Shown: positions 1 through 42,878, counted from the first letter of the stretch. The stretch is DNA of 54,968 bases from Parcubacteria group bacterium Gr01-1014_17 (GCA_007376285.1 VMFZ01000007.1:1-54968); one strand, 5' to 3'. A program made the numbers and translations. The notes: generated by a model not told the origin, from the sequence alone.

Positions 1-768
1 ATTACCGATTTTGTGGTGTTTGACGACACGCTCCCGCTTCCCGAAGCGCTTCATCTAGCCGCCTCGCTTGAAAGCAAAAGCGCGCACCCGCTAGCCCGCG
101 CGATTGTTGAAAAAGGGAAAACGCTCCCGCGCGGGCTAGCAACACCCTTTGAATACAAAGAAGTTGCTGGTATGGGAGTATCCGGTGTCGTAAACGGCAA
201 GCATATTGAACTCGGCAACTTGTCTTTTTTGGAAGGGCTTGCTGGAGGAGTTGGCGGACAAAATGTTGGGTTTGGGCGATTTCAGAATGAAGGGAAGACC
301 GTCGTGTTTATGTTTGTGAAGAAAAAGCTCGCTGCTCTCATTGCATTCAGCGATACATTGCGGCCGTTTGCAAAAGAAGCAGTCGCGGCGCTTGTGAATC
401 TCGGCAAGGAAGTCGTGCTTCTGACAGGAGACAACAAAAAAACCGCGGAAGCGATTGCGCGCCAGTTGAATATCACCACAGTTCTCGCCGAAGTATTTCC
501 GCAAGACCGGGCGCGCGTCATAAAAGAATTGCAAGGTGCAGAGTCCGCGCGGCGCCTGCCTGCGCAGGCAGGTACCGTTGCCGTGGTAGAGAACAATGAA
601 ATACGGGTGGGTGAGAATACCGTTATATGCGCAGGCGACGCTCTTCAGAGTGTAGTGTCTGCGTTTGCGAACAGCAGAAAAACAATGCGTACCGTGAAGA
701 TGTACATTTTTTTGCAGTTTTTATGGTACGCGGTCGCGCTTGGTGTCTTGATTTTATTTCGCATCTGA
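1..768 (+). CDS. P1B-type (heavy-metal) ATPase C-terminal part, 5'-truncated by the window edge; hinge motif degenerate
   Basis: Frame is open from base 1. N-domain SAHPLARAIV and GMGVSG, P-domain LLTGDN, AEVFPQDR. The GDGxND hinge reads VENNE. Confidence 0.8.
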   Translation: MTDFVVFDDTLPLPEALHLAASLESKSAHPLARAIVEKGKTLPRGLATPFEYKEVAGMGVSGVVNGKHIELGNLSFLEGLAGGVGGQNVGFGRFQNEGKTVVFMFVKKKLAALIAFSDTLRPFAKEAVAALVNLGKEVVLLTGDNKKTAEAIARQLNITTVLAEVFPQDRARVIKELQGAESARRLPAQAGTVAVVENNEIRVGENTVICAGDALQSVVSAFANSRKTMRTVKMYIFLQFLWYAVALGVLILFRI

Positions 769-790
769 TAGATACTGTGTGCAGATGCAA

Positions 791-824
791 GTCGCCTCAT
801 CGGCGACTCGCCGAAGAGGTGAGA
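791..824. repeat. Palindromic repeat family A (gtcgcctcatcggcgacycgccgaagaggyg)
   Basis: Near-identical copies at 15461, 31522 and 40309; stem cgcctc-a-tcggcg / cgccga-a-gagg. Confidence 0.85.
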
Positions 825-836
825 AAGGATACTATA

Positions 837-1037
837 ATGAACGCAAATGAAGTGGATGTGACTGACAAAGTCAGAATTGTGAGGGGTGATTGGGCAAATC
901 AGGTTGGGAAGGTAACGCACAAAATCGTTTTGTTTCCGATTCCAGACGAACCGGCAAAGGCGCTTTTGACAATTCAACTTGAAGGTTTTAATCGCTCCGT
1001 GCAAAAGAACAATCTTGAAGTTGAAAAAATCGCCTAA
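837..1037 (+). CDS. Small KOW-motif protein, 66 aa
   Basis: ATG at 837 after SD-like AAAGGA; VRIVRGDWANQVGKV fits the KOW pattern. Confidence 0.6.
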   Translation: MNANEVDVTDKVRIVRGDWANQVGKVTHKIVLFPIPDEPAKALLTIQLEGFNRSVQKNNLEVEKIA

Positions 1038-1077
1038 TAGCACGGGCGGTTTTTTTCTTTTATGTTAGTATCTTTTT

Positions 1078-1917
1078 ATGTCTCTAAAAATAGGAATTGT
1101 TGGCTTGCCAAATGTTGGGAAGAGTACGCTATTTAACGCGCTCACCAAACAGAGCGTACCGGCAGAGAATTACCCATTTTGCACGATTGACCCAAGTGTC
1201 GGTATTGTACCGGTGCCTGACGAACGGCTGAATAAACTCTCGATGCTTTCACATTCCAAAAAGACAATTCCCGCCATTGTGGAGTTTGTGGACATTGCAG
1301 GGCTCGTGCGCGGCGCATCCGAAGGCGAGGGGCTCGGCAACAAATTTCTCTCACACATCCGCGAGGTGGATGCGATTGCGGAAGTGGTGCGTGTGTTTTC
1401 CGCCGAAGGCGGATCCGCCTATGGCGGACAAGTTATTCATGTTCACGAAAAAGTAGACCCGCTTTTTGATATTGAGATTATAAACTTGGAGTTGGAAAAA
1501 GCGGGGTTGAAAAAACCGGTGTTGTATGTACTCAACTCATCCGAAGCGAGTGAGAATATGACAGAGAAAATAAAAGGGAAAATCCCCGGACGGTTTGTGG
1601 AAGTAGACCCTGTGTTCGGCACGGGGATGGCTCAGTTGATTGTTGAAGCGTACGCGCTTTTGGATTTAATTTCATTTTTCACGACAGGCGAAGACGAAAC
1701 GCGGGCGTGGACGACGAAGCGTGGAAGCACAGCACCCGAAGCGGGCAAGGCGCTCCATACCGACTTCCGCGACAAATTCATCCGCGCCGAAGTTATCCAT
1801 TACGACAAGTTGGTGGAAGCGGGTAGCTACCTCGCCGCGCGCGAGCGCGGGTGGGTGCGCACAGAAGGAAAAGAGTATATAGTACAGGATGGGGATGTTA
1901 TTGAATTTAAAATTTAA
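1078..1917 (+). CDS. ychF: YchF Obg-family ATPase with most of the helical domain missing
   Basis: GIVGLPNVGKST, NYPFCTIDP, DIAGLV, EGLGNKFL and a TGS domain ending YIVQDGDVIEFK. Confidence 0.95.
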   Translation: MSLKIGIVGLPNVGKSTLFNALTKQSVPAENYPFCTIDPSVGIVPVPDERLNKLSMLSHSKKTIPAIVEFVDIAGLVRGASEGEGLGNKFLSHIREVDAIAEVVRVFSAEGGSAYGGQVIHVHEKVDPLFDIEIINLELEKAGLKKPVLYVLNSSEASENMTEKIKGKIPGRFVEVDPVFGTGMAQLIVEAYALLDLISFFTTGEDETRAWTTKRGSTAPEAGKALHTDFRDKFIRAEVIHYDKLVEAGSYLAARERGWVRTEGKEYIVQDGDVIEFKI

Positions 1918-1924
1918 AATTAAA

Positions 1925-2010
1925 ACACTTCGCGGAAACGCAAATTTTGTCCCCTTTACCCTCTCTACGGGGGTCCTACGGGATCCAAAATTTACATTTC
2001 CGCTTCGTGT
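1925..2010. repeat. Long imperfect intergenic hairpin (REP/MITE-like)
   Basis: acac..gcggaaa..aaatttt.tccc pairs with ggga..aaaattt..tttccgc..gtgt. Confidence 0.6.
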
Positions 2011-2018
2011 AAAAAGAT

Positions 2019-2914
2019 ATGAATCCACCTAAACTAACGCCAAAAGATTTCTTTCTCTATGTGGGTGCCTTGGCGACCCTGACCGCGTGTTCCCCGACGA
2101 GCTCACATATTATTACGGTCCGTACTCGGGCGGCATTCGTTTTGCGCTTGCGTCGCTTATCGTGATTTTCCCGATTTCACTTATCTTGTTTTCCGTCGTG
2201 AAAAAGGGGATTGCACGCGAGCCAGAAAAACTTGGGCTTGCGCTCCGCAAGTGGGTGTTGTGGATAACTATTTTTATTACCGGAGCAGCTCTCGCGGGCG
2301 ACTTGATTGCCGTGCTCTCCGGCTTCCTCGGCGGCGAGCTCACGATGCGCTTTATCTTGAAGGCACTCGCCGTGTTCGCGGTCTCCGCCTCAGTGTTTTG
2401 GTATGCCGTACTTGAAATTCGCTTGACATCGGAAAAACCAATATCGCTCCGCACGCCATTTATTGTCGGCTCTCTCATAGGTGTTATTGCGGCAATTATG
2501 TGGGGATTTTTCGTAATGGGCTCTCCTTTTACGGTGCGAAAACTCCGGATGGATGAACGGCGCGTTTCCGACCTCCAGAGCATTCAGTGGCAGGTAGTAA
2601 ATTATTGGCAGCAAAAATCGCGCTTCCCCAAATCGCTTTCTGAACTGGAAGACCCGCTTTCTGGGTACAAAGTGCCGACTGACCCAGAGACCGCAAAATC
2701 ATATGAGTTTACGCTAGGGACAGGATATGCGTTTACCCTGTGCGCGGACTTTACGCTTCCAAACGGTACGCAAAGCCGTAGCAAGACAAAGCCGTATCCG
2801 ATGCCGATGAGTGATGAGGGTCTCGCCGAGAATTGGGAACATACTGCCGGCCGCGCCTGCTTTGAGCGCGTACTTGACCCCGAGCGCTATCCGCCGTACG
2901 CCAAGACCCGCTAA
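2019..2914 (+). pseudogene. CPR-type membrane protein (DUF5671-like, from memory) with an N-terminal frameshift
   Basis: ATG 2019 gives MNPPKLTPKDFFLYVGALATL. The body DRVFPDELTYYYGPYSGGIRFALASLIV is in another frame from about 2081. Confidence 0.7.
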
Positions 2915-2948
2915 AGAAAAATCTGCGACCGTTCTTTACGGTAGTAAC

Positions 2949-2987
2949 CTATTCCAACTACTTGCTATAGCAAGTAACTGGAAGAGT
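2949..2987. repeat. Palindromic repeat family C (core tacttgctatagcaagta)
   Basis: Copies at 11644-11687 (reverse) and 31671-31714. Confidence 0.85.
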
Positions 2988-3071
2988 TGAATAAGAAAGA
3001 AAAAGTGGGTTGGTAGGGAAATGAAGTTGTTTGCTTTTTTTATATGTGAATATGAGGTAAGATTATTTGTA

Positions 3072-5354
3072 ATGAAATCCTATAATCATTCCGCGGTTGA
3101 GAAGAAGTGGCAGAAGAAGTGGGGGAAGTCGGCATACAAAACCCAAGACAAAAAGAAAGGCGCCGAGAATTTTTATTTTCTGACCGAGTTTCCGTACCCG
3201 TCCGGCAATCTTCATGTCGGGCATTGGTATGCCTTTGCCGTGCCGGATATTTTGGCGCGGTATTTGCGTATGACCGGCAAGAATGTTTTGTACCCGATTG
3301 GGTTTGACGCTTTTGGACTTCCTGCAGAAAACGCGGCACTTCAGCATGGGCTGAATCCACACACTTGGACATACGAAAATATCGCGTATATGCGCAAACA
3401 GTTCATCTCTATGGGCGCCTCGTTTGACTGGTCGCGCGAAATTACCACTTGCGACCCAGCGTACTATAAATGGACGCAGTGGCTTTTTTTGAAATTGTAC
3501 GAGCGAGGTTTGGTGTACCGAAAAAAGACGGAAGTGAATTGGTGTCCGAAAGATAAGACAGTTCTCGCAAACGAGCAGGTAAAAGATGAAAAGTGCGAAC
3601 GGTGCGGTACTTCAGTGGAAAAGCGGAAGATGGAGCAGTGGAATATTAAAATTACAGAATACGCAGAACGCCTACTGTCGGATTTGGATGTACTTGATTG
3701 CCCGGAGGAAATAAAAATCGCGCAGAGGAATTGGATTGGGAAATCAGAAGGCGCTGAAATTGAATTCAAAATACACCCCACCCCAACCCTCCCCAAAGGG
3801 AAGGGGGTTAGTGTCAAAGTTTTTACCACCCGCCCCGACACTTTGTTCGGCGTGTCGTTTATTGCACTTGCGCCGTCTCATCCGTTTGCGAAAGACGCAA
3901 AAAATCTGCGCGCTATAAATCCGGCAAACAACGAGGAAGTGCCTGTGTTCGTTGCGGATTATGTAGTAGAGGATTACGGCACGGGCGCCGTGATGGGTGT
4001 CCCGGCGCACGACGAACGCGATCGAGAGTTTGCATTAAAAAACAACATTCCGGTAAAGAATTCGGAATTGGCGCCGAAAGAAGTATTTGAGAAATTTGCA
4101 CAGAAGACCACAACCTACAAACTCCACGATTGGGTCGTGTCGCGACAGCGATATTGGGGAACGCCGATTCCGCTTATTCACTGCGAGAAATGCGAATATC
4201 AACCCGTTCCGGAAAAGGATTTACCGGTGCTTTTGCCACCCATCAAAGATTATGTGCCGACTGGCGATGGCCGCTCGCCGTTGGCGAAAGCGCGAAAGTG
4301 GGCGGAAGTGAAGTGCCCCGCGTGCGGTGGGAAAGCAGAACGAGAAACCGACACTTTAGATACTTTCGTGGATTCTTCGTGGTATTTCTTGCGCTACACC
4401 GACCCGAAAAACAAAAAAGAATTTGCGTCACGGAAAAAAATGGGCGCGTGGCTTCCGGTGGACTTTTATTCTGGCGGTGCGGAACATACGACGATGCACC
4501 TGCTCTACTCTCGCTTTTGGCACAAAGCGCTCTTTGACCTTGGGCTCGTGTCAGACAAAGAGCCGTATGTGCGCCGAATGAACCGCGGGCTTATCTTGGG
4601 GTCGGACGGACAGAAGATGAGCAAGTCGCGCGGGAATGTGATTGACCCCGATGAAGAAGTAAAACAAGTGGGCGCGGATACGGTGCGAATCTATCTTGCC
4701 TTTATCGGACCGTACAACGAAACGGGTTCGTACCCGTGGGACAAGGGAGGAATCGCAGGCATTCGCAGGTTTTTGGAACGGGTGTGGAGGTTGCAGGACA
4801 AAATTCATCCCCCACCTCGGAAGCCCTCGGCACCCCCTTCAAAGGGGGAACTCAGAAATTCCTCCCTTGAGGGAGGTGTCTCCCGTAGGGAGACGGAGGA
4901 TGTTCTTTTGCACCAAACCATCAAAAAAGTTGGGGAGGACATTATAGCAATGAAGTTTAATACCGCCATCAGCGCACTGATGGTTTTGTCAAAAGCGTTT
5001 GAGAGCGAGAAGGCCGGCGCGCGCGAGGATTTTGCAATTTTCTTGCAACTACTTGCCCCATTTGCGCCACACATTGCGGAGGAACTCTGGCATGAAAATA
5101 ACTTCAAGGGTTCGGTGCACAAAGCGCCGTGGCCAACATACGACGAAGCGAAAACACGCGAAGCGTCAGTGACAATTGTGATACAAGTAAATGGCAAGAT
5201 ACGAGGAAGCTTTTTCGCGCCGCGCGGTGTCACTGAGGCGGACGCATTTGCGCGCGCCGAGGCGCTTCCGGAAGCCGCAGCACGGCTTTCCGGGAAACAA
5301 ATTAAAAAGCGGTTTTTTGTGAAAGACCGGCTGGTGAGTTTTGTCACCACTTGA
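3072..5354 (+). CDS. leuS: Leucyl-tRNA synthetase with a shortened CP1 domain and two repeat-derived inserts
   Basis: EFPYPSGNLHVGH (HIGH), TTRPDT, GTGAVMGVPAHD, SRQRYWG, KMSKS. Start taken at MKSYNH. Confidence 0.97.
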   Translation: MKSYNHSAVEKKWQKKWGKSAYKTQDKKKGAENFYFLTEFPYPSGNLHVGHWYAFAVPDILARYLRMTGKNVLYPIGFDAFGLPAENAALQHGLNPHTWTYENIAYMRKQFISMGASFDWSREITTCDPAYYKWTQWLFLKLYERGLVYRKKTEVNWCPKDKTVLANEQVKDEKCERCGTSVEKRKMEQWNIKITEYAERLLSDLDVLDCPEEIKIAQRNWIGKSEGAEIEFKIHPTPTLPKGKGVSVKVFTTRPDTLFGVSFIALAPSHPFAKDAKNLRAINPANNEEVPVFVADYVVEDYGTGAVMGVPAHDERDREFALKNNIPVKNSELAPKEVFEKFAQKTTTYKLHDWVVSRQRYWGTPIPLIHCEKCEYQPVPEKDLPVLLPPIKDYVPTGDGRSPLAKARKWAEVKCPACGGKAERETDTLDTFVDSSWYFLRYTDPKNKKEFASRKKMGAWLPVDFYSGGAEHTTMHLLYSRFWHKALFDLGLVSDKEPYVRRMNRGLILGSDGQKMSKSRGNVIDPDEEVKQVGADTVRIYLAFIGPYNETGSYPWDKGGIAGIRRFLERVWRLQDKIHPPPRKPSAPPSKGELRNSSLEGGVSRRETEDVLLHQTIKKVGEDIIAMKFNTAISALMVLSKAFESEKAGAREDFAIFLQLLAPFAPHIAEELWHENNFKGSVHKAPWPTYDEAKTREASVTIVIQVNGKIRGSFFAPRGVTEADAFARAEALPEAAARLSGKQIKKRFFVKDRLVSFVTT

Positions 5355-5379
5355 CACGCTTTCAGCGGGGGTATATAAC
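5351..5379 (+). promoter_or_regulatory. Sigma70-type promoter overlapping the leuS stop codon
   Basis: TTGACA-17 nt-TATAAC. Confidence 0.6.
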
Positions 5380-5404
5380 TAGGTTACTATAAGATAATAT
5401 ACAT

Positions 5405-6604: not shown

Positions 6605-6612
6605 AAAGAAAA

Positions 6613-16484: not shown

Positions 16485-17399
16485 ATGGCAAACAGGCACC
16501 TTGGCAGATCAATAGCGCTTCAATCACTCTTTGAGTGGGATTTCCGCGCGCTTCCGGACAAAGCGCTTGCGGACATAGAATCGCGCAACACCGCAGAGTT
16601 TGCGCCGGGAATAGAAGAAAGCAACTCGTTCGTGCATACGCTCACCAGCGGCGTGCTCAAAAAACGCAAAGACATTGATAAAATTATCAGCAAAGCAGCG
16701 CCAGAGTGGCCGATTGAACGCATTTCATATTTAGACCGCAATGTACTCCGTCTAGGACTCTACGAGCTTCTATTTTCGGACCGCAAAGAAGTGCCAGCAA
16801 AAGTCGCGATTAACGAAGCGATAGAATTGGCGAAAACCTACGGCGGCGATGCGAGTGGTAGATTTGTAAACGGTGTGCTCGGCTCCGTGTATCGCGAGCT
16901 TGGCGAGCCGGGCAAAAACGAAGCGCCTAAGCGCGCGAAGCGCGCGGAAGTTCCGTATGAAAAAATGCTCATACAGAAGCTTGGCGGCGCGGTCGTATAT
17001 GCGAGAGACGGCGCCGACATCTATATAGCACTCGTGCACGACATTTTTGGGCACTGGACTTTGTCTAAGGGCAAAATCGGCGATACTCCAGAAATAGCCA
17101 ATGAGGGCGTTGAGACCGGAACTATTCGCGAAATTAAAGAAGAGCTTGGTTTGGATATCGCAATAAAAGAAGCAATCGGGTTCAACGAATATATCGCCTC
17201 CGACCCTGAAAAAGGAAAGATAAGGAAGCAAGTGCATTACTTCCTCGGTGAATCGGCGTTTGCGCCTCTCAAACTTGGAACATCGGGTGGTCTGGACGAT
17301 GCGCGTTGGTTTAAGTTGAAAGATATCGTGACCCTCAATTTTTACCAGGACACGCTCCCGATTGTAACGAAAGCGGTGAATATTTTACTAAAAAAGTAG
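16485..17399 (+). CDS. nusB: NusB fused to a C-terminal Nudix hydrolase domain
   Basis: DRNVLRLGLYEL, VAINEAIELAKTYG, FVNGVL; then WTLSKGK..REIKEELGL. Confidence 0.92.
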   Translation: MANRHLGRSIALQSLFEWDFRALPDKALADIESRNTAEFAPGIEESNSFVHTLTSGVLKKRKDIDKIISKAAPEWPIERISYLDRNVLRLGLYELLFSDRKEVPAKVAINEAIELAKTYGGDASGRFVNGVLGSVYRELGEPGKNEAPKRAKRAEVPYEKMLIQKLGGAVVYARDGADIYIALVHDIFGHWTLSKGKIGDTPEIANEGVETGTIREIKEELGLDIAIKEAIGFNEYIASDPEKGKIRKQVHYFLGESAFAPLKLGTSGGLDDARWFKLKDIVTLNFYQDTLPIVTKAVNILLKK

Positions 17400-24293: not shown

Positions 24294-26726
24294 TTATGGT
24301 AGCTGCACCGTACTCGTCGCCACATTCCCCTCAAAACTCACATTGATGGCTTTGACAATTATTGCTCCAACTGCGGCGGACAAACCGGTACTGTTGTGTA
24401 TGAACGACACATTCTCCAGTGAAATGGGAGAGGAGTCGTAGTTGAGTCCGATGTCCATATAGCGGATGGTAGTATTCAAGAAGTCAGAGGTCGCATTGGG
24501 TTTCAGGTAGATGCCGGAAGGGTTCAAGGCAATCGGAGTGGTAGAGCCAGTGCCGTGAACATCGCTTCCGTCAGAGTCGTCTGCCCAGTTGGTGAAGATG
24601 ACTGGGTTTGATGGAGTTCCTTGCGCTTCCAGTCGTCCATATACCTCTAGAGAATAGCGGTCGGTCTTCCACACGCTCCCCGCTTCAGCAATAAGACCTG
24701 CTCCTGTGGGTATGGTAATCGTACTCGGGATGATGTAGGGGAAGGAGGTGTTCTTGGAGAAGGTAGAGGTAGCTCCGGCAGAGAGGAGGTTGCCTGAAGA
24801 GAGACGGACACCGTTCCATTGACCGTTGCTTGAACCAGAGTTGTTCTGTATTCTCCCGCTTCCAGAGAGTCCGCCTCCCCAGGTGAAAGCTCCACTGGTG
24901 TTGTTCGTAAAGGTATTACTGCTAATCGTACCCCTCGTGTCCCAGAAGTTCATACCGTAGGAGTTGTCGGTGATAGTGTTGCTGGAGATGGCGGGCGCTC
25001 CACCGCTCCCATAGATGCCGTAGGAGGGAGTGTCGGTGGTATGATAACGAATAGTATTACTGCTGACGGTAGAGGACGCGGTGTCTAGGTAGATACCGTA
25101 TGTCTTGCCGTATTCAATTATGGAGTTGCTGATTGTGGGAGAGGAGTTCGTAATGTAGATGTTTGCCTTCTGTTCTCCTCCGGAGAATTTGCCTCCATAG
25201 CGCACGGTACCGTATGAGAGCGTACCGGTACTGCCCGCGAGATACTGGATGCCGTACCAATCACCTGCTTGTGGTGAGGTATTCGAACCATCTCTGTTGA
25301 AATCACCACCATATGTATCATCAAAGTAGCTGGTAAAGATTGAGGGAGAAGATGCAGTTCCTGATGTTGTGAGATTGCCGTTCACCTTGATGCCTGCGGT
25401 ACTGAGGAACTTGATTACCGCGCCGGATTGGAGCGATAGCGTAGCTCCGTTCGCTACGGTGAACCATGCGTTGTCCACGAAGTACGGACTGCCGGTAGCG
25501 GTAAGAGTGAGGGTGCCTGAGGTAAGGTCGCTTCCGTAGTTCACGAGATAGTTGGCGTAGTTTCTGGCTCTCGGGGTCCCACGAATACTTCCCCCTGCTT
25601 GGTCTGTTCCGTTTTTGATGTTGTTGCGGTCTCCTCTATTGGCTGCCCAGCCGTCACTGGTGAGTCCAGATACATCTGGTGCCTTGCGCTCCATAGAGAG
25701 ATAGTTGCCTCCTCCCCCAATGCCGCACCAGCCGCCGCATGCAGAAAAGTCTAATTCATCTATCGTAGAAGTCGCGGTTCCAGAAAAGTACGACAGGTAA
25801 AGATGCTCGCCAGACATATCTCCTAGTCCTGAACCAAAACTCGTCCACAAGTCAGCTGTTACATTGGCGATGGGTGATTCACTCGCTTCGTTTGTTTCTC
25901 CGCTGTTCTTCCGTTCAATTAGGTAATATACGCCTGATGCAATGCTGCCAGACAGCTGAATGTAGGGCGCGCCATCTGCTGAGTAGAGCGTCCAGCCAGA
26001 GAGAGACACGGTATTACTTGTTTTGTTGTAGAGTTCAATCCATTCATCCTCCGAACCCGTCGCAGGTATGTCAGAACCGTACCAATATATTTCGTTGAGC
26101 ACAATGTCTCCTGCAGATGGAACATACGGAGTTGGTGTGGGGGCGGGGGCTGGTGCTGGACTTGCACTAGTGCTGCTTGTGGTGAGCGAAGTCGAACCAC
26201 CTCCTCCTCCACCGCCTCCACCACGAAACCCGTCTGGACCGATTGGAATCGGAAACGGGTCGTAGATGGGGTTGGTGGTTGGTTGAGATGGAGTCGGGGC
26301 AGTAACAATGGTCGGTGGCGCGGGAACAGTAAGAGGAAGCTGGACTGGCGCCGCCGCCTTTGGCGGCGGCGCAATTGCTGTCTTTGTTTTTTGTGGTACA
26401 ACTGTTACTTGCTCTGATATTCCAACATTCCTAGGAATGTTGGAAGGTAGAGATACTGGCTCCGGAACGATATTTACAAGCGCAATCGCAGCCCCAGCGA
26501 AAGTGTTGTCTATGACAATAGGCGTACTCTCAAAAATACTTGCGAACGCGCTCATGATTTTTGCTGCCGCAATTCCCCTTCCTGTCTCAACAACATTCGT
26601 ATTATGAATCTTCTCCACCTGCGTCTCCGTCTTATCTTGCTTCACAAAATATATCGCGAGCCCCACCACCAGTGCAATAAACGCAACCAGCACCACTCCC
26701 ACGCCCCACTTTAGTATTTTCAGCAT
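24294..26726 (-). CDS. Membrane-anchored surface protein: Pro/Gly linker, lamin-tail domain, right-handed beta-helix
   Basis: N-terminal TM; IVLNEIYW..DEWIELYNKT..VSLSGWTL (LTD); GDWYGI and ISNSII/ISSNTI repeats. Confidence 0.8.
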   Translation of the reverse strand: MLKILKWGVGVVLVAFIALVVGLAIYFVKQDKTETQVEKIHNTNVVETGRGIAAAKIMSAFASIFESTPIVIDNTFAGAAIALVNIVPEPVSLPSNIPRNVGISEQVTVVPQKTKTAIAPPPKAAAPVQLPLTVPAPPTIVTAPTPSQPTTNPIYDPFPIPIGPDGFRGGGGGGGGGSTSLTTSSTSASPAPAPAPTPTPYVPSAGDIVLNEIYWYGSDIPATGSEDEWIELYNKTSNTVSLSGWTLYSADGAPYIQLSGSIASGVYYLIERKNSGETNEASESPIANVTADLWTSFGSGLGDMSGEHLYLSYFSGTATSTIDELDFSACGGWCGIGGGGNYLSMERKAPDVSGLTSDGWAANRGDRNNIKNGTDQAGGSIRGTPRARNYANYLVNYGSDLTSGTLTLTATGSPYFVDNAWFTVANGATLSLQSGAVIKFLSTAGIKVNGNLTTSGTASSPSIFTSYFDDTYGGDFNRDGSNTSPQAGDWYGIQYLAGSTGTLSYGTVRYGGKFSGGEQKANIYITNSSPTISNSIIEYGKTYGIYLDTASSTVSSNTIRYHTTDTPSYGIYGSGGAPAISSNTITDNSYGMNFWDTRGTISSNTFTNNTSGAFTWGGGLSGSGRIQNNSGSSNGQWNGVRLSSGNLLSAGATSTFSKNTSFPYIIPSTITIPTGAGLIAEAGSVWKTDRYSLEVYGRLEAQGTPSNPVIFTNWADDSDGSDVHGTGSTTPIALNPSGIYLKPNATSDFLNTTIRYMDIGLNYDSSPISLENVSFIHNSTGLSAAVGAIIVKAINVSFEGNVATSTVQLP

Positions 26727-36696: not shown

Positions 36697-36767
36697 TGTT
36701 TATGCGCTTACCAGTATACCAAGTATTTGCTGTAAATCCTACACCGACCATTATCTCTAACACCATA

Positions 36768-36955: not shown

Positions 36956-37014
36956 AGCAAAATCATACCAAAAATACGGCTCTGGGGATAGGTAAAACAG
37001 GGGTCGGAAAACGC

Positions 37015-37043
37015 TTGACAAGATGTACGGATAGTGCTATGCT
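37015..37043 (+). promoter_or_regulatory. Sigma70-type promoter
   Basis: TTGACA-17 nt-TATGCT with an extended TG. Confidence 0.65.
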
Positions 37044-37113
37044 TTCAGCAGACGCTGGCGAACGCCAGATGTTCTTAAACAAACAAAATCTCACTCAACT
37101 GAAAGTGAAAGAA

Positions 37114-37458
37114 ATGAAAACAGATCACGAAATAAGCACCCAAGAGGCAGAGGAACTGCTTAACGGAATTGTGGCGGACTACAAAGATTCCAAGTGGGGA
37201 AAGGCCAAGGGACATGCGATTCAGGCGAACCTTGATTCACTTTCACGAGTTGCTCTGGTGTATCAGCAACTCGGAGAGTTGTATACGCAGAGAGGGGCTC
37301 TCTGTCTCTGCGAAGCTCGCGGTGCCGCCGAAATTCGTTTTTTTATCCAGGAAATCACGGGAAGACTTCGGAAAGGTGCCAATCCGGATACAGAGTTTTT
37401 CGGACTCATGAATACAGTCCGAGGAAGGTGTTGCCCTCAGACAATGCCACTTTATTAG
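37114..37458 (+). CDS. Hypothetical helical protein, 114 aa
   Basis: ATG downstream of the promoter; no recognised motif. Confidence 0.6.
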   Translation: MKTDHEISTQEAEELLNGIVADYKDSKWGKAKGHAIQANLDSLSRVALVYQQLGELYTQRGALCLCEARGAAEIRFFIQEITGRLRKGANPDTEFFGLMNTVRGRCCPQTMPLY

Positions 37459-37526
37459 GGTTTGTTGGTCTTCGAACACTCAAACAGAACCCTGAACCGC
37501 AGACAATAATGTCTGCGGTTTTCTTT

Positions 37527-38477
37527 TTAATACAACTTAACACCAATCTTCTCGCGCACCATTTCCATTTTCGTTTGTGCAATGGCGCGAGCGCGCTCGC
37601 CTCCGTCTTTGAGAATTTGGAGGACGCGCGCCGTGTCGCCAGCAATCGCTTTGCGTTTTTCGCGGAGCGGGGCAATGAACTTTTTCATATCGGCGGTGAG
37701 TGCGTCTTTCAGTTCTTTATACTTCCCCGCTTTTTCCTCGTACAGTTTTGCGAGTTCGGACTCAGTGCGGAAGAGTTTGTGAATCTCATACACATTTTTC
37801 GGAACGCCCGCGCTTGAGTCCGTCACAATGCTCATCACAAGCTTTTCTATATCGGAATCTTCTGCAAAGAGCAGAATCGTGTTGCCGTAACTTTTACTCA
37901 TTTTTTGCCCATCAATACCAGGCACGACCGCAACTTCTTTCATAATATGTGCCACCGGCAATTTAAAGGTCTCGCCATAAATACGATTAAATTTTTCCGC
38001 GATGTCTCGCGCAATTTCCACATGCTGTTTTTGGTCTGCGCCGACTGGAACGACATCCGTATCATAAAGCAAAATATCTGCCGCCATAAGCACTGGGTAA
38101 TTAAAAAGCCCGACGCTTGCCTCTTTCTTTTTCGCCACGGCATCTTTGTACGCATGCGCGCGTTCCAAGTACGGTACAGTAATAATCGTATCAAAAATCC
38201 ACGCGAGTTCGGTGTGTGCAGATACATCCGATTGTTTAAACAGAATTGATTGCGTTGGGTCAATACCAATCGCCAAGTAATCAATCGCAAGGTTGATTAT
38301 ATTTTCGCGCATCACTTTTGGGTCTTGAATGATGTTGAGCGCGTGGTAGTCAGCAATCATAAAAAAGCAGTGGTGCGCGGTTTGCATTTCCACAAACTGC
38401 TTCATCGCGCCGAAATAGTTGCCGATATGCGGCCTGCCCGACGGCTTGATTCCCGATAAAAGTATCTTTTTGAACAT
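37527..38477 (-). CDS. trpS: Tryptophanyl-tRNA synthetase
   Basis: SGIKPSGRPHIGNY, YPVLMAADIL, VGADQKQH, KMSKS. Confidence 0.96.
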   Translation of the reverse strand: MFKKILLSGIKPSGRPHIGNYFGAMKQFVEMQTAHHCFFMIADYHALNIIQDPKVMRENIINLAIDYLAIGIDPTQSILFKQSDVSAHTELAWIFDTIITVPYLERAHAYKDAVAKKKEASVGLFNYPVLMAADILLYDTDVVPVGADQKQHVEIARDIAEKFNRIYGETFKLPVAHIMKEVAVVPGIDGQKMSKSYGNTILLFAEDSDIEKLVMSIVTDSSAGVPKNVYEIHKLFRTESELAKLYEEKAGKYKELKDALTADMKKFIAPLREKRKAIAGDTARVLQILKDGGERARAIAQTKMEMVREKIGVKLY

Positions 38478-38484
38478 GCGCATA

Positions 38485-39852
38485 TTATAGCACAAGCTCC
38501 TGCCAGAGTTCCGCGCCGAGCGCCATGCCGCGCTTGAAGTTTGCAAGTTCAAATTTTTCGTTCGGAGAGTGCGCGTTGTCGTCGGGAAGCGCAAGTCCGA
38601 TAAGCAAACTATGAACGCCAAGGATTTTCTTGAAATCCGTTACAACAGGGATAGAACCGCCCTCGCGTATAAAGCGTGGCTGCGCACCGAATACGCGCTT
38701 TATGGCGCGCTCCGCCGCGCTGACCGCGGCGCTCGTCGGCTCAAAGAAGTACGGCTCGGCTCCATGCCCGTTTTTTATTTCCATCGTTACCGTCGTCGGA
38801 CAATGCGTCGTGAGGTGCTTCCTCACAGCGGCAATAACTTTCTGCGGTTCCTGATGCGGTACCAATCGCATTGTGATTTTCGCGTGCGCAAGCGACGGTA
38901 CGATGGTTTTTGAGCCAATACCCTGATACCCGCTCGTGAGCCCATTTATTTCAATTGTCGGGCGAATCGTTGTGTGCTCAATGTGACTAAATCCTTTTTC
39001 TCCAAACAAGCACGGAACTTTAAGGAATGCGCGATAGCGTTCCGCATCTCCCGCATCATCTTCGTGCATCGCTTTGCGTTCTTTCGCCGAAAGTGCGCAC
39101 ACGCCATCGTAGAACCCGCTCACAAGAATTTTGCCTGTTTTTTTATCGCGGAGTGTTGCGAGAAGGTGCGCTAACGCTAGCGCAGGGTTCTCAATAGAGC
39201 CGCCGTACGAGCCGGAGTGCACATCGCGATCTGGACCTCGCAGCGTAATCTCAAACGCGGCAATACCGCGAAGCGCGTAGGTTATTGCAGGTGTTTTAAG
39301 CGAGGGCATATTCGTATCGGAAATGACCACGCCGTCTGCCGCGAGCATCTTTTTGTTTTTCTTCAAAAAGAACGATAAGTTGGAACTGCCTACCTCCTCC
39401 TCCCCTTCAATCACAAACGAAATGTCGCACGGTAAAGGCGTATATGTTTTAATATACGCTTCTACTGCTTTTAGGTGCGCAAAGTGCTGTCCTTTGTTAT
39501 CGGAGGAGCCACGCGCAAAAATTTTACCACCGCGAATTGTCGGCGTAAACGGAGGCGTTTTCCAGAGTTCAAGCGGCTCCGGCGGTTGAACATCGTAGTG
39601 GCCATAGACAATATAGTGAAGTTTTTTTGCTGCACTGCCTTTTGTAGTTGCAACAAGTACAGGATTTCCTGCTGTTGGGTACAGCGTTGCAGAAAGACCT
39701 ATCTTGCGACAATGTGCAAGAAGCCACTCCGCGCACTTTTGCATCTGCTTTTTATCGCCGCTCGCGGATACACTCGCAAGCGAGACATACTCCTTGAGTT
39801 CCTCAAGGAATCGCGGATATTCTTTTTTGAGATATGCGTGAACTTTTTGCAT
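38485..39852 (-). CDS. M20-family dipeptidase
   Basis: GHYDVQP, ARGSSDNKG, EGEEE, EGGSIP, AHSPNE. Confidence 0.92.
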   Translation of the reverse strand: MQKVHAYLKKEYPRFLEELKEYVSLASVSASGDKKQMQKCAEWLLAHCRKIGLSATLYPTAGNPVLVATTKGSAAKKLHYIVYGHYDVQPPEPLELWKTPPFTPTIRGGKIFARGSSDNKGQHFAHLKAVEAYIKTYTPLPCDISFVIEGEEEVGSSNLSFFLKKNKKMLAADGVVISDTNMPSLKTPAITYALRGIAAFEITLRGPDRDVHSGSYGGSIENPALALAHLLATLRDKKTGKILVSGFYDGVCALSAKERKAMHEDDAGDAERYRAFLKVPCLFGEKGFSHIEHTTIRPTIEINGLTSGYQGIGSKTIVPSLAHAKITMRLVPHQEPQKVIAAVRKHLTTHCPTTVTMEIKNGHGAEPYFFEPTSAAVSAAERAIKRVFGAQPRFIREGGSIPVVTDFKKILGVHSLLIGLALPDDNAHSPNEKFELANFKRGMALGAELWQELVL

Positions 39853-39863
39853 AATTCTAATTT

Positions 39864-39902
39864 CCGCCCCCGATGTTGATGGGCTTCAAACATCGAGGGC
39901 GG
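39864..39902. repeat. Divergent family B palindrome
   Basis: ccgcccccgatgtt..aaacatcgagggcgg. Confidence 0.65.
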
Positions 39903-40112
39903 TGTTTGAAGATTTGATTGTAAGTAACCCCGACGCTTTGGATGTAAAATCCAAAGGTCGGGGGTGAACTATCTCTCCGCCTCTAGGGCGGGTCGCCTTT
40001 TAGCGACTTACCACACTTTATCGCCGTAGTGAATCATAATGGTTATGATCTAAACGATTTTTGTCGTAACGAACCATCCAACACTCGTTGGCGGCTCTCC
40101 TGAAATTTTTTC

Positions 40113-40262
40113 TTACAGGAAATGCGGGTCGGTGCGGGTCCACCATTGCATCCAGATTTTTACATCGCGCGGTTTGTTGTTTCCGTTGGTAAACGCCACA
40201 CGGAGTTTTCGAGATTTGTCGGCGCTTCGCCGAACTCTCGAACCGTTATTTTTTACCTTCAT
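40113..40262 (-). CDS. Putative 49-aa basic small protein
   Basis: MKVKNNGSRV.. after SD-like GAAAGG. Confidence 0.45.
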   Translation of the reverse strand: MKVKNNGSRVRRSADKSRKLRVAFTNGNNKPRDVKIWMQWWTRTDPHFL

Positions 40263-40308
40263 TTTTATGCCTTTCGTTTTGGTTTTTTTGGTAAAGAGAT
40301 ATTTCAAA

Positions 40309-40343
40309 GTCGCCTCTCCGGCGACCCGCCGATGAGGCGGGAA
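40309..40343. repeat. Palindromic repeat family A
   Basis: gtcgcctctccggcgacccgccgatgaggcggga. Confidence 0.85.
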
Positions 40344-40347
40344 CAAA

Positions 40348-40373
40348 ACAGCCCTCCGTGTCTGGAGGGCTGA
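40348..40373 (-). terminator. Intrinsic terminator
   Basis: cagccctcc/ggagggctg stem with a U-tract on the minus strand. Confidence 0.65.
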
Positions 40374-40397
40374 TTGGTATTTTGCGTAAAAGTATAT

Positions 40398-40499
40398 TTA
40401 GGAAGCGCGCAATGCACAAATCAACTCTCCAGAGGAAAGCTTGCGGATAAGGTGCCAGAAATACATGACACCAGTGCGTTGTGTGCGCGTTAAATTCAT
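40398..40499 (-). CDS. Putative 33-aa small ORF MNLTRTQRTGVMYFWHLIRKLSSGELICALRAS
   Basis: AAGGA SD; upstream TTGACA-16 nt-TACGAT; downstream terminator. Confidence 0.45.
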   Translation of the reverse strand: MNLTRTQRTGVMYFWHLIRKLSSGELICALRAS

Positions 40500-40614
40500 A
40501 GTATCCTTATATCGTATACCTATTGTTTTTGATGTCAAGCGGGGGTGTGGAAAACAATTGCAATTGTCTTTTACAATGATAGTATGCCTAACGGATAAGA
40601 AAAAGAAAGATCTT

Positions 40615-40932
40615 ATGCAAAATGGGATTGACATACCAGATATTAAAGCAATGAGTTTGGCGGAAGCGTGCGCTTCCACGGGAAAGCGGCCAGAACAATT
40701 TCCGGAAAACAAAAAATGTGCGGGATGTAATTGTATACTCTCACGATACAACCCATACATGCTCTGTAATTCATGTCAGAGGGCAATACGAACGGTAGAA
40801 CTCAAAAAAGTCAATTCCGCGCTACCACAGAGAAATGGGCATATATACTGGAGTGCATCTGTCATGGCGTTTCAAGAGCGTACGCCACTACCGCAACACG
40901 AACAAGTGCGAGAAAACATCTTTGCGAGGTAA
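40615..40932 (+). CDS. Hypothetical zinc-ribbon protein
   Basis: CAGC..CNSC; followed by the agacggcac/gtgccgtct terminator at about 40943-40970. Start uncertain. Confidence 0.6.
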   Translation: MQNGIDIPDIKAMSLAEACASTGKRPEQFPENKKCAGCNCILSRYNPYMLCNSCQRAIRTVELKKVNSALPQRNGHIYWSASVMAFQERTPLPQHEQVRENIFAR

Positions 40933-40961
40933 AACAAAGCACAGACGGCACTTTGTGCCGT

Positions 40962-41672
40962 CTATTTTTTTGGATGCAACGCGGCAATAGCCGACAAAAT
41001 TATTCCGGCTTCTTTTTGATATTTCTTCTGGTCATTCTCCGGTAAAACAATTGGCGTGCCGAATACGGCAACGATATGCCTCCGGAGCAATAAGAAATCG
41101 CCGAGCGTCATATTAAAATCGCCGAAAATGCGCACTGGCACAACAGAACAGCCAGTGCGGTACGCAAGATATGCGACACCGCCATGTGCTTCTTTTCCTA
41201 TATTTCCATCGCGCGTCTTGCGCCCCTCAGGAAAGATTAAAACGCTCCCGCCTTTTTCAAGTATATTTATGTGTGTCGCGAGCGACTTCTCGTAGTCCTT
41301 AAAACCAGCAGTTGCATGATGCGAGCCCCATAATTTAAAAAGTAATCCGCCATAGAAAATCTGCCTCCAACCGGATGTTTTATAAAACGCACGCGGGCGA
41401 GATACATAAAATATCGGCAAAAGTGGCGAAAGAAATGGGAGCGCCGCAGGAACAACAATCGCATCCAATTCGCTTGAATGATTCGCTGCAAAGATTACTC
41501 CTCTGCCTTTTTCGGCACCAGATGTCTGCAATTTAGACATCTGGTGCCTCTGCGATTCTAGATTTCCAAGACCTTGCACCTCAAACTTGCAAAACAAAAA
41601 CAAAACGGCGCGCGTCGCGTGCCAGATTGCCTTTTGCAATATAAGCGGAGAAATAAAGAAAAAATTGTTCAC
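40962..41672 (-). CDS. plsC: PlsC-like lysophospholipid acyltransferase
   Basis: NHSSELD (HxxxxD), FPEGRK.RDG, VVPV. Start placed at GTG 41672 because 41684 lies inside the tRNA. Confidence 0.85.
   Translation of the reverse strand: MNNFFFISPLILQKAIWHATRAVLFLFCKFEVQGLGNLESQRHQMSKLQTSGAEKGRGVIFAANHSSELDAIVVPAALPFLSPLLPIFYVSRPRAFYKTSGWRQIFYGGLLFKLWGSHHATAGFKDYEKSLATHINILEKGGSVLIFPEGRKTRDGNIGKEAHGGVAYLAYRTGCSVVPVRIFGDFNMTLGDFLLLRRHIVAVFGTPIVLPENDQKKYQKEAGIILSAIAALHPKK
41514..41548. repeat. Family B palindrome inside the plsC coding sequence
   Basis: ggcaccagatgtctgcaatttagacatctggtgcc encodes RHQMSKLQTSGA. Confidence 0.85.
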
Positions 41673-41675
41673 ACA

Positions 41676-41747
41676 TACCCCCAAGAGGAATTGAACCGCT
41701 ATCTCAAGCTTCGGAGGCTTGCGCTCTATCCGTTGAGCTATGGGGGC
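41676..41747 (-). tRNA. tRNA-Arg(CCG), CCA not encoded
   Basis: GCCCCCATAGCTCAACGGATAGAGC, anticodon arm CAAGC-CTCCGAA-GCTTG, TTCAATT loop, TGGGGGTA end. Confidence 0.93.
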
Positions 41748-41756
41748 GAAAATCCA

Positions 41757-42878
41757 TTATATCCCCTCTTTCTTTAACTCTTCAACCAGATGTTTCGCGC
41801 TTTTAGAGAGTTTGTTCGGCAAGTCAATTTTGATTTTGATGAGAAGGTCTCCGCGCTTTCCTCCGGAAACTGGTACACCTTTTCCGCGCACGCGCAAAAT
41901 CTCGCCGTGTGTGATTCCTTCCGGAATCTTAACTGTCATATCGCCGTCTAGTGTTTTCAACGCGTATTCTCCTCCCAATAATGCCGTGGAAAGTTTAATC
42001 GGCAATTCGGTAATCAAGTTTGCGCCTTCTTTGCGGAAGAGTGAGTGTTTGCCCACATGCACCTTGATATACAAATCCCCTGCCGTGCCGCTCGCCACCG
42101 CTTCTCCCGCGCCCGCCATGCGGATAACTTCACCGTCTTCAATGCCCGCCGGAATACGGACGGAAATTTCTTCCTGTTTTTTCATCACTCCGTGCCCATG
42201 ACACACCGTACATTTCTCCGAAGGTACTTGCCCTTTACCGCGGCACGCGGTACAAGGGCGCACGGTTTGCATAGAACCGAAAAATGAGCGGCGCGTCTCG
42301 CGTACCTGTCCTTTACCGTTGCAAGTGTCGCAGGTTTTCTGTCCCGCCTCTGGCTTGCCGCCAGAGCCGCGGCAAGTGTTGCACAATGCGGTCTTTCCAA
42401 TGAGCACGCGGCGCTCGGCGCCGAATACTGCCTCTGGAAATGCGAGTTCTACATCAATGGAGATATCGCGCCCGCGCGTCGGTCGTCGTGAACTTGTTGA
42501 ACGGCCGCCGAACATATCTCCAAACATATCGCCCAAATCAAATTCAACTTGCGCGCCGCTTCCGCCGCCAAACCCAGCACGACGCACAAAATCAGAAAAA
42601 TCAAACCCTCCGCCTTCGGCGGAAAACCCGCCAAAACCCCCTTGCCCACCGCTCGGCGCCGCACCTTCAGAAAATACCCTGCCGTACGCATCGTACTCGG
42701 CGCGTTTTTTATCATCGGAGAGAACACTGTATGCCTCGCTTGCTTCCTTGAATCGTTTTTCGTCCCCTCCTTTTTTGTCAGGATGAAATTTGTGCGCCAG
42801 ATTCCTGAACGCCTTTTTTATGTCGTCCTTTGACGCCGTTTTATTGATGCCGAGTGTTTCGTAATAGTCGTGAGCCAT
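41757..42878 (-). CDS. dnaJ: Chaperone DnaJ
   Basis: HPD, G/F region and four CxxCxGxG repeats. Confidence 0.97.

Follow-up and report, generated by a model that had tools for sequence, protein, structure and literature searches.

Short In-Frame Palindromes in Parcubacterial Genes as Probable Copies of Two Families of Miniature Hairpin Insertion Elements

Introduction

The closest known analogues of the short palindromes described herein are intragenic REPs, Rickettsia RPEs, and cyanobacterial SDRs. SDRs, 21–27 nt long, are reportedly the smallest mobile repeats on record; they are said to have been recognised as insertions between orthologous regions, to be associated with hairpins, and to be nested. 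To our knowledge, no transposase is known for them, and SDRs are not known to reside mainly in frame within essential genes. Going by this description, the parcubacterial elements are similar in that they are dispersed repeats of less than 30 nt, occur as insertions between related genomes, and nest in each other. However, they belong to another phylum, have other sequences, and are built from shorter units of 15–18 nt.

REPs are GC-rich stem-loops of 20–40 bp with a GTAG or CGTC head, present in hundreds of copies and mostly extragenic (Di Nocera et al. 2013, PMC3733652; PMC3116915). Intragenic REPs are often located in DNA replication and repair genes, frequently as dimers encoding 20–30 amino acids, and it has been proposed that a tyrosine HUH transposase mobilises REPs in trans, a route that leaves no duplication (PMC3733652; PMC3116915). 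The elements studied here resemble the REP/REPIN–RAYT system as short, GC-rich, dispersed stem-loops that differ between related genomes and are in part intragenic. Unlike REPs, they are units of 15–18 nt (5–6 amino acids) without a tag, have a low copy number (4–18 per genome), and are nearly all intragenic; in the host genome (610 kb, 92% coding; hereafter G000), the 18-mer lies within an ORF in nine out of nine cases. GTAG and CGTC are absent, the first four bases being CCTG in the 18-mer and TCCG in the 15-mer, and the flanks carry no conserved tetranucleotide.

Rickettsia RPEs are about 100–150 bp long, encode a conserved peptide of 30–50 amino acids, and are confined to Rickettsia (PMC10969869). 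The likeness lies in the in-frame palindromic repeats in unrelated housekeeping genes of a reduced genome, absent from orthologues and translated into a peptide that the fold tolerates. With 15, 18, 30, or 33 nt (+5–11 amino acids), though, the present elements are roughly ten times smaller and extend across CPR classes and beyond. MITEs exceed 50 bp and feature terminal inverted repeats around an unrelated core, target-site duplications, and DDE transposases (PMC10969869). The present elements share with them a non-autonomous nature, inverted-repeat ends, dispersal, and a variable copy number, but not the target-site duplication. In the literature searched, we found no description of these elements or of in-frame palindromic inserts in CPR, and no match to the exact 18-mer sequence.

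Palindromes in the Window and Their Excess over Chance

The window is a stretch of 54,968 nucleotides from Parcubacteria group bacterium Gr01-1014_17 (Parcubacteria/CPR), an ultra-small groundwater bacterium. An initial annotation had placed four palindromes inside its coding sequences, and all four were recovered in a sequence check, with agreeing translations. The first, at 555–572 (strand given as "."), is an exact copy of the 18-nt palindrome CCTGCCTGCGCAGGCAGG, translated as (R)LPAQAG within the ORF at 1–768 (+), a degenerate P-type ATPase paralogue. This ATPase region is too diverged from the orthologue of a relative (G012) to offer a clean empty site; the copy is in the standard frame and is one of nine exact copies. 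The second is a tandem pair of hairpin units TCCGCC-N3-GGCGGA in ychF on the + strand, composed of TCCGCCGAAGGCGGA (1399–1413, loop GAA, SAEGG) and TCCGCCTATGGCGGA (1414–1428, loop TAT, SAYGG). As single-stranded DNA, this 30-mer forms two hairpins (−12.5 kcal/mol). A solo unit, TCCGCC-GAA-GGCGGA in the sense of the gene, occupies 42609–42623 on the − strand in the G/F-rich region of dnaJ (SAEGG); on the given strand it reads TCCGCCTTCGGCGGA, the reverse complement of the first 15-mer of ychF. Finally, the 25-nt palindrome GCGCCGCCGCCTTTGGCGGCGGCGC (GCGCCGCCGCC-TTT-GGCGGCGGCGC, 11-bp stem) is found at 26348–26372 on the − strand, in the Pro/Ala-rich linker of an LTD/beta-helix surface protein, and its core CCGCC-AAA-GGCGG is translated as PPKA. 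Pfam supports YchF, DnaJ, the HAD/P-type-ATPase fragment, and the LTD/beta-helix surface protein as hosts. As annotated, the first three units are multiples of 3 nt and the 25-nt palindrome is not. The suggestion that they form a class of very short insertion elements is supported for three of the four; the 25-nt palindrome, a single copy whose surrounding region does not align to G012, can only be counted as a possible member.

The nine exact copies of CCTGCCTGCGCAGGCAGG in G000 have unrelated flanks and are all translated as LPAQAG. All eight LPAQAG peptides in called genes are encoded by the identical 18 nt, while the ninth belongs to an ORF omitted by the gene caller. The frequencies were compared with a null obtained by shuffling synonymous codons, in which every protein and the codon usage are preserved. 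They lie far above it, with 9 observed versus 1.15 expected for the GCCTGC stem without a loop and 6–7 versus 0.05 for the TCCGCC stem with a 3-nt loop. Throughout the G000 genome, hairpins with a 6-bp stem and a 3-nt loop number 220 versus 130 ± 9, and of the nine SAxGG peptides that the proteome contains, six use the exact palindromic codon set (0.02 expected). Chance or codon usage as the origin is ruled out by these nulls. As a separate observation, GCGCGC-stem hairpins (RAxRA/ARxAR) are 5–7 times above the null.

Across the phylum, the 18-mer was detected in 8 of 301 genomes (1–15 copies each, with bursts of 4 to 15), while a reversed control pattern gave no match; within the genus it is present in 10 of 19 genomes. 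The GTDB species genomes contain at least 120 loci, distributed over many CPR classes and some Bacteroidota, and the tandem 30-mer was found on at least 120 metagenome contigs. Among viral contigs there were 25 matches, mostly in contigs of 58–67% GC with mixed frames, which may partly be due to chance; only three low-GC contigs look like they hold true copies. It is highly improbable that the palindromes arose by chance or through codon usage in Gly/Ala/Ser-rich loops, or that they are artefacts of assembly. The G/F region of DnaJ and the linker of the surface protein are indeed of low complexity and prone to short palindromes by chance, but the shuffled null (0.05 and 0.02 versus 6 observed in each case), the empty control, and the recurrence of identical inserts in assemblies of many independent studies, and in orthologues of two species, argue otherwise.

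Insertions Relative to Orthologues

In alignments with orthologues, the palindromes appear as insertions, and conservation of the same residues without palindromic DNA, which would have spoken against the initial annotation, was not observed. Compared with 28 relatives, CysRS has six additional amino acids in G000 only. In MurA, too, six additional amino acids are confined to G000, and RecJ, RNase J, and the proteins at C21:24396 and on C14 are each six amino acids longer than in G012. On the DNA level, alignment with relatives revealed exact 18-nt inserts in CysRS, MurA, RecJ, RNase J, SecA, and others. The tandem TCCGCC pair accounts for 33 nt (+11 amino acids) in RecG of G000 and for 30 nt (+10) in MurD of G012. 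In YchF, SAEGGSAYGG is missing from the three closest relatives (90–92% identical). The site is filled in G000 and, with a perfect palindromic pair of 30 nt (net +8 amino acids), in the non-sister genome G001, but empty in the closest relatives of G000. For DnaJ, G012 reads GFD-GFG where G000 has a longer segment, with a net gain of four amino acids in a low-complexity region. YchF, DnaJ, and the MurD of G000 display further small changes adjoining the insert.

Target-site duplications were not found: when 18 or 30 nt are removed exactly, the remainder lines up with the empty site of the orthologue. Exact deletion of the 18-mer restores a native-type codon in six aligned G000 cases (GA^C, CG^C, CG^C, CG^T, AG^C, and CA^C), and since the junction bases in RecJ differ (C and T), even a duplication of 1 nt is excluded. 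In clean cases the insert always comprises the entire unit and ends sharply; neither partial nor over-long copies were seen. Nested copies also occur, inserted exactly at the midpoint of a copy already in place. A native loop codon with arms added on either side would fit the net gains in DnaJ (+4) and in YchF of G001 (+8); it is ruled out by RecG (+33 nt) and MurD of G012 (+30 nt), where the loops are part of the gain. The idea of a footprint left by a larger element with CCTGCCTGC...GCAGGCAGG ends was likewise rejected, as nothing longer was found, only nested 18-nt and 8-nt-loop variants.

An indel scan of G000 against the whole genome of G012, with a hairpin threshold of a stem of at least 6 bp, showed that 17% of the lineage-specific insertions of 5–6 amino acids contain such a stem, compared with 7% of random CDS windows. 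For insertions of 10–12 amino acids, the values are 36% and 11%. The sets of occupied sites differ between the two genomes. Nevertheless, two 18-mer copies are common to both and identical at all 36 nt, including all synonymous positions, even though 45% of conserved codons differ (P about 1e-4). One old insertion followed by simple neutral decay is no explanation for this identity, which calls for DNA-level constraint, re-insertion at hot spots, or recent exchange.

Such conservation would be expected if the palindromes were functional DNA sites under selection (a site for a dimeric protein, an uptake signal, or a recombination site) and not selfish mobile DNA. The shape of the 18-mer, similar to a dimer binding site, and its identity across phyla point in the same direction. 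We nonetheless regard this explanation as very unlikely. The sites originate by insertion instead of substitution, their density is just 4–15 per genome, and 97% of the sampled genomes of the phylum, as well as close relatives such as G008 and G018, have no 18-mer. In addition, positions differ between sister genomes, and the host genes are unrelated, with no positional logic. DNA uptake sequences (DUS/USS) arise by substitution at orthologous positions and reach a very high density of about 1 per kb, whereas the 18-mer arises by insertion and amounts to 9 copies in 610 kb.

Frame and Target Preference

The 18-mer is read in one codon phase in 9/9 copies of G000, 11/14 of its relatives, and 51/78 of other genomes, and the 30-mer in 79/93 (85%) of the long open frames on metagenome contigs. 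The initial annotation held that inserts survive only when they keep the frame. Yet the downstream frame is kept by any copy because every unit length is a multiple of 3 nt, and the bias concerns the codon phase instead. It reflects selection on the encoded peptide, target preference, or both. With regard to the target, the 18-mer is flanked by R|Y in 60% of cases (25% expected). The 30-mer prefers TT|AA, with A at the second outward flank position in 84%, and AAA was already present at both empty sites examined. The length rule and the single phase, which yields small flexible peptides (LPAQAG, SAxGG), would account for the persistence of the inserts in loops of essential proteins of a 92% coding genome.

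Search for a Mobilising Enzyme

No gene linked in cis emerged from all-against-all clustering of the ORFs at 120 18-mer loci, which returned housekeeping families only, with a maximum of nine loci per family. The G000 genome encodes two Y1_Tnp-like ORFs (C8:2545–3252 and C21:18106–18777). In contrast to the REP/RAYT arrangement, they are flanked not by the 18-mer or the 15-mer, but by different hairpins, namely CCAAGG stems and a 29-nt AT palindrome. Y1_Tnp was rejected as the mobiliser, as it occurs in 24 of 31 relatives, some of which have neither element. DUF559, likewise set aside as the mobiliser, is still a lead: strong matches are restricted to the genus and G025, and these are also the genomes in which TCCGCC 15-mers abound. 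This co-occurrence exists at the genus level only and comprises two independent lineages. There were no DUF559 matches among the ORFs of the 120 loci, and within the genus DUF559 copy number does not correlate with element copy number. G000 has two DUF559 genes (C15:238–626 and C7:2777–3130), which do not adjoin the elements and are flanked by other hairpins.

Copying without any dedicated enzyme can also be envisaged. A stalled nascent strand would switch template to another copy or to imported DNA via 1–3 nt of microhomology, copy the hairpin, and return (MMBIR/template switching). The lack of a target-site duplication and of a linked gene, the TT/AA and R/Y flanks, which lengthen the palindrome as brief stretches of microhomology, the insertions at centres of other palindromes, where forks stall, and the strong single-stranded hairpins are all compatible with this route. 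It is nevertheless unlikely given that clean inserts are always sharp-ended whole units and that the same 18 nt appear in bursts across distant phyla, which suggests a sequence-specific agent coming and going with lineages.

Two Putative Families of Miniature Insertion Elements

On the whole, the comparison of sequences makes it probable that the palindromes are copies of miniature insertion elements, non-coding and able to form hairpins, which fall into two families. Of these, Family 1 would consist of the exact 18-nt palindrome. Family 2 would be the TCCGCC-N3-GGCGGA hairpin unit, usually as a 30-nt tandem of two units whose loops are roughly complementary (consensus TCCGCC-AAA-GGCGGA-TCCGCC-TCT-GGCGGA), whereas solo 15-mers most likely represent halves left by deletion between two direct repeats. 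The 15-mer is not clearly an independent class, because it is usually half of a 30-nt tandem and has the CCGCC/GGCGG stem in common with the 33-nt double hairpin. Its loops vary widely between copies, which is unusual and counts against simple copy-and-paste. Further points against this reading are that the search yielded no mobilising enzyme, that the two shared 18-mer copies are identical, and that small changes accompany the inserts in YchF, DnaJ, and the MurD of G000. Each unit enters whole, with a length of exactly 18, 30, or 33 nt and no target-site duplication, and copying would take place in trans. The likeliest agent to act on the extruded hairpin may be a structure- or sequence-specific single-stranded DNA enzyme that leaves no duplication, either of the HUH/Y1 type or a small nuclease.

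The insertions appear to be clean and recent and to affect essential genes of the host and its relatives. Each seems to add 5 to 11 harmless amino acids, a behaviour like that of some of the smallest mobile DNA elements known. A bolder proposal, which we advance tentatively as a real possibility, is that mobile elements of 15–30 nt, smaller than any described, are active here in the form of the 18-nt palindrome and the 30-nt double hairpin. They would cross distant phyla, insert site-preferentially and without duplication into essential genes, be moved by an unrecognised enzyme or by enzyme-free hairpin copying, and rank among the main origins of short loop insertions in CPR proteins. Their sequence would be maintained at the DNA level, as is suggested by the resistance of the shared copies to synonymous drift.

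Biological Meaning

If the elements are mobile, the lower size limit of mobile DNA would move to 15–18 nt, and a gene-dense genome would select elements with a multiple-of-three length and a harmless translation. A biochemical question follows: which activity can recognise an 18-bp palindrome, or a hairpin of the TCCGCC type, and insert it with no duplication? Because the insertions differ between sister species, the elements can serve as natural markers of recent events. In terms of annotation, LPAQAG and SAxGG(SAxGG) segments in CPR proteins would have to be considered element-derived and not functional motifs. More broadly, the elements would provide a concrete mechanism for many of the short lineage-specific loop insertions in CPR proteins, with hairpins in 17–36% of the insertions of 5–12 amino acids between two sister species.

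Micro-palindromes of the window and their excess over chance

The presence of micro-palindromes inside coding sequences is confirmed, and all four sequences named in the initial annotation lie at their reported positions in the window, which is contig C24 of a source genome assembled into 30 contigs (610 kb). Pfam identifies the host genes as a HAD/P-type-ATPase fragment (1-768), holding an exact 18-nt palindrome (the 18-mer) at 555-572; YchF (1078-1917), with two tandem hairpin units TCCGCC-N3-GGCGGA (15-mers) at 1399-1428; DnaJ (41757-42878, minus strand), with one 15-mer at 42609-42623; and an LTD/beta-helix surface protein (24294-26726, minus strand), with a 25-nt palindrome at 26348-26372. 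The first ychF 15-mer and the dnaJ 15-mer are reverse complements of each other, and each therefore reads TCC GCC GAA GGC GGA (SAEGG) in the sense of its gene.

In the source genome, the 18-mer CCTGCCTGCGCAGGCAGG is found in nine copies with unrelated flanks, and the 15-mer in seven, one of them immediately preceded by an N6 variant. The comparison with a codon-shuffled null model proposed in the initial annotation was made by shuffling synonymous codons inside each ORF, which keeps every protein and its codon usage. Counts in the ORFs lay far above this null, both for TCCGCC stems with a 3-nt loop (6 observed, 0.05 expected) and for GCCTGC stems without a loop (9 observed, 1.15 expected); hairpins with a 6-bp stem and a 3-nt loop number 220 genome-wide against 130 ± 9. 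Six of the nine SAxGG peptides in the proteome use exactly the codons TCC-GCC-nnn-GGC-GGA (0.02 expected from codon usage), and the same 18 nt lie behind every LPAQAG found, despite CTG and CCT being minor codons. The peptide is therefore dictated by the DNA palindrome and not the reverse. Also enriched, at 5-7 times the synonymous-shuffle null, are hairpins whose stems alternate G and C (CGCGCG/GCGCGC; loops of 1, 3 or 4 nt) and which encode RAxRA or ARxAR; examples in the window lie at 16931, 24024, 29335 and 30304.

Block insertion at empty sites

Orthologues were sought in 30 relatives. The CysRS of the source genome reads KISD-LPAQAG-GIYFD, where D and G are directly adjacent in each of the 28 other orthologues (at most 79% identical). 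Only the source genome's MurA carries six additional residues compared with orthologues 83, 80, 75 and 74% identical. A whole-genome comparison with the close relative G012 (645 kb; 367 aligned reciprocal best hits, median identity 76%) revealed 18-nt inserts specific to the source genome in MurA, RecJ, RNase J, contig C14 and C21:24396, the last reading LPAQTG with one mismatch, and inserts specific to G012 at C3:5702 (LPAQAG) and C22:4547 (CLRRQ phase). Exact deletion of the 18-mer restores a native-type codon, mostly identical or synonymous to that of the relatives: GA^C in CysRS, CG^C in MurA and RNase J, CG^T in RecJ, AG^C in C21 and CA^C in SecA. No target-site duplication was found at the aligned insertion sites, and in RecJ even a 1-nt duplication is excluded because the two junction bases differ.

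Insertions of the TCCGCC unit are seen as well. RecG of the source genome has gained a clean 33 nt, TCCGCC-GTAGTA-GGCGGA followed by TCCGCC-TCT-GGCGGA (SAVVGGSASGG), and MurD of G012 a clean 30 nt (SAKGGSASGG). YchF reads VF-SAEGGSAYGG-QV-IHV against VF-EDKD-IIHV in its three closest orthologues (90-92% identical); together with DnaJ and the source genome's MurD it is a less clean case, because a few neighbouring changes accompany the insert. Outside that clade, the full-length YchF of relative G001 (77% identical) carries the perfect 30-nt palindrome TCCGCCGGAGGCGGATCCGCCTCCGGCGGA directly after the same TTT codon, implying that the site was filled independently in each or that the sequence passed from one lineage to another. 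The YchF of the source genome and its three closest relatives (L152-L154) is itself only about 279 aa long and is devoid of the whole central helical (coiled-coil) domain kept in all other relatives (alignment gap of about 60 aa). When all insertions specific to the source genome or to G012 are considered, 17% of those of 5-6 aa and 36% of those of 10-12 aa contain a perfect stem of 6 bp or more, compared with 7% and 11% of random coding windows.

The proposal of a second, much shorter class of insertion element is supported by alignment with orthologues lacking the insert for the 18-mer and the TCCGCC unit. The 25-nt palindrome is present once in the source genome, its length is not a multiple of 3, and its host region, a Pro/Ala-rich linker, fails to align with G012; the sense-strand core of the palindrome, CCGCC-AAA-GGCGG, matches the commonest loop form of the TCCGCC family in PPKA phase, a likeness in sequence that amounts to resemblance only. 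The 18-mer at 555-572 lies in a degenerate ATPase paralogue whose G012 orthologue is too diverged there for empty-site comparison. The Pfam match of this diverged ORF ends just ahead of the 18-mer and its GDGxND region is unrecognisable; in G012 this paralogue (C13) is accompanied by a canonical CopA-like gene (C5).

Anatomy, target preference and nesting

The 18-mer is a sharp unit: among 125 copies in other genomes, only a preceding purine and a following pyrimidine are conserved beyond it (60% of copies, 25% expected). As single-stranded DNA it is predicted to form a stem of 7 bp closed by a GCGC loop (-6.5 kcal/mol). The 15-mer normally occurs doubled, as a 30-nt tandem pair, and the pattern of the pair matched at least 120 metagenome contigs, mostly from groundwater and sediment. 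The matches listed comprise 123 distinct sites, 15 of them perfect 30-nt palindromes; 93 lie in long open frames, and 79 of these encode SAxGGSAxGG, most commonly SAKGGSASGG (26 sites; reverse orientation SARGGSAFGG, 6). Among them, the first loop on the sense strand is A-rich (AAA 29, CAA 11, AGA 9, GAA 7, GGA 6) and the second T/C-rich (TCT 20, TCC 18, TCG 13, TTT 9). The flanks are TT/.../AA; the second outward base is A in 84% of the matches listed, against a background of 10% each for TT and AA. Because AAA is already present in both clean empty sites examined, TT/AA is a target preference and not part of the element.

According to folding predictions, the 30-mer would form two small hairpins (-12.5 kcal/mol) or, with complementary loops, one 13-bp stem (-18.7 kcal/mol). 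Its CCGCC/GGCGG stem is also that of hairpin B in a 33-nt double hairpin abundant in the source genome, GTCGCC-TCWTC-GGCGAC-CCGCC-GAWGA-GGCGG, and judging from this shared stem the two classes may be related. Two micro-families related to the 18-mer, a 24-nt form CCTGCC-RATCGGCG-GGCAGG (LPIGGQA / PPADRRAG; C18:711, C18:54507, C27:8627) and the non-palindromic CTGCCCGTACAGG (LPVQ(A/V)G; C11:65700, C27:2682), appear to be insertions specific to the source genome.

Site occupancy, nesting and distribution are as would be expected of mobile DNA. The two sister genomes differ in their occupied sites: G012 holds four exact 18-mers and seven 15-mers, and the only sites it has in common with the source genome are SecA and C11/C16. 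Elements also insert into one another. In G012 the C11/C16 copy is interrupted precisely at its midpoint by another 18-nt element, CCTGCCTGC-CCTGCGTGCGCAGGCACG-GCAGGCAGG. This composite recurs, with one inner base different, at G012 C12:62315, a site empty in the source genome. In the source genome itself, C19:4551 reads LP-LARAGG-AQAG. A longer AT-rich palindrome, AGTATTTTG/CAAAATACT, holds at its centre a CCGCC hairpin in the source genome (C10:12002, C11:48165) or an 18-mer variant in G012 (C10:21541, C12:72492), which suggests insertion into hairpin tips.

Distribution and shared copies

In an even draw of 301 genomes from the phylum, eight contained the exact 18-mer (15, 9, 7, 6 and 4 copies in five, the source genome included, and one in three), and a reversed control pattern gave no match. 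With one mismatch allowed, 10 of 19 genomes of the genus contain 1-10 copies each. GTDB species genomes hold at least 120 loci of the 18-mer (WWE3, Microgenomates, Saccharibacteria, many Parcubacteria groups, some Bacteroidota and others). Every one of the 19 genomes of the genus contains the 15-mer (2-18 copies), as does one other genus (12 copies); elsewhere in the order the count is 0-2. One 18-mer, in a metagenome-assembled genome labelled Gammaproteobacteria (L026), lies in a type IV prepilin leader, RREAG-LPAQAG-WTLAELL, directly before the G/WTLAELL cleavage motif.

Unexpectedly, the two 18-mers shared with G012 are identical (36/36 nt). The codons of these two genomes differ at 45% of the conserved residues (L 62%, P 56%, A 51%, Q 40%, G 56%), and two conserved LPAQAG segments would retain all twelve codons by chance with a probability of about 1e-4. 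The palindrome may be held constant at the DNA level, hot spots may have been filled independently, as in YchF, or exchange may have been recent. SecA of relatives G007 and G018 (87% identical) has the empty site CAC AAA. Within the genus this site (C8:8950, after YDPLH) is a hypervariable hot spot of insertion (L429-L451), with low-complexity inserts of 15-70 aa in other species, such as GISNNQFPISKP...

Reading frame

Eight of the nine 18-mers lie within called genes and the ninth (C7:4627) within an open frame of 325 codons; each of the nine has the phase C/CTG CCT GCG CAG GCA GG/N, LPAQAG. Confirmed genes (ychF twice, dnaJ, murD, recG) hold five of the seven 15-mers and the 18-nt N6 variant, all in phase 0 and encoding SAxGG; the other two 15-mers, at C27:20121 and C17:16462, fall in doubtful ORFs. 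Other phases would yield PACAGR or CLRRQ from the 18-mer and Pro- or Arg-rich peptides from the 15-mer, and the frame bias probably reflects selection. For the 30-mer a target effect adds to selection, because TT/AA in T/TAA/ codon phase is a stop codon. The suggestion that such elements survive only when they keep the frame retains a valid core: since 92% of the genome codes, only elements of 3n length with a benign reading can accumulate.

Possible mechanism and relation to known elements

The comparisons demonstrate block insertion of a fixed hairpin unit without duplication, palindromic target preference, centre nesting, patchy bursts and intragenic persistence. Copying would most likely take place in trans, on hairpins folded from single-stranded DNA and through a type of enzyme that leaves no duplication; natural candidates are an HUH/Y1 transposase, as proposed for REPs, and a small nuclease combined with repair. 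An enzyme-free template-switch route, for which the TT/AA and R/Y flanks are available as microhomologies, is a serious alternative to such an enzyme. ORF clustering across 120 18-mer loci gave only housekeeping families and no cis-linked gene. The source genome encodes two Y1_Tnp-like and two DUF559 ORFs, neither pair flanked by micro-palindromes. At C21:18077-18785, one Y1_Tnp-like ORF (223 aa) is bracketed by two hairpins sharing a CCAAGG/CCTTGG stem, an IS200/RAYT-like layout unrelated to the micro-palindromes. Strong DUF559 matches (PF04480) are confined to the genus and relative G025, exactly the set rich in TCCGCC 15-mers (source genome and 30 relatives; two of the 13 genera sampled in the order); DUF559 is a lead rather than a finding, because only two independent lineages are involved and it does not correlate with the 15-mer within the genus.

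The cyanobacterial SDRs that Elhai reportedly described in 2008 (cited in PMC3116915) follow a common principle with the micro-palindromes, and they are the closest likeness in size and nesting. The principle is likewise common to intragenic REPs and RPE-4/6 (PMC3733652) and to RPEs (PMC10969869). Unlike REP-RAYT systems, the micro-palindromes have neither a GTAG or CGTC tag nor a flanked RAYT gene, and are neither extragenic nor high-copy; their size does not fit RPEs, and they lack the duplication of DDE-type MITEs. The 18-mer sequence had no match in the literature searched. The interpretation as insertion elements is supported for the 18-mer and the TCCGCC unit, whose novelty with respect to the known families is that they are smaller and predominantly intragenic.
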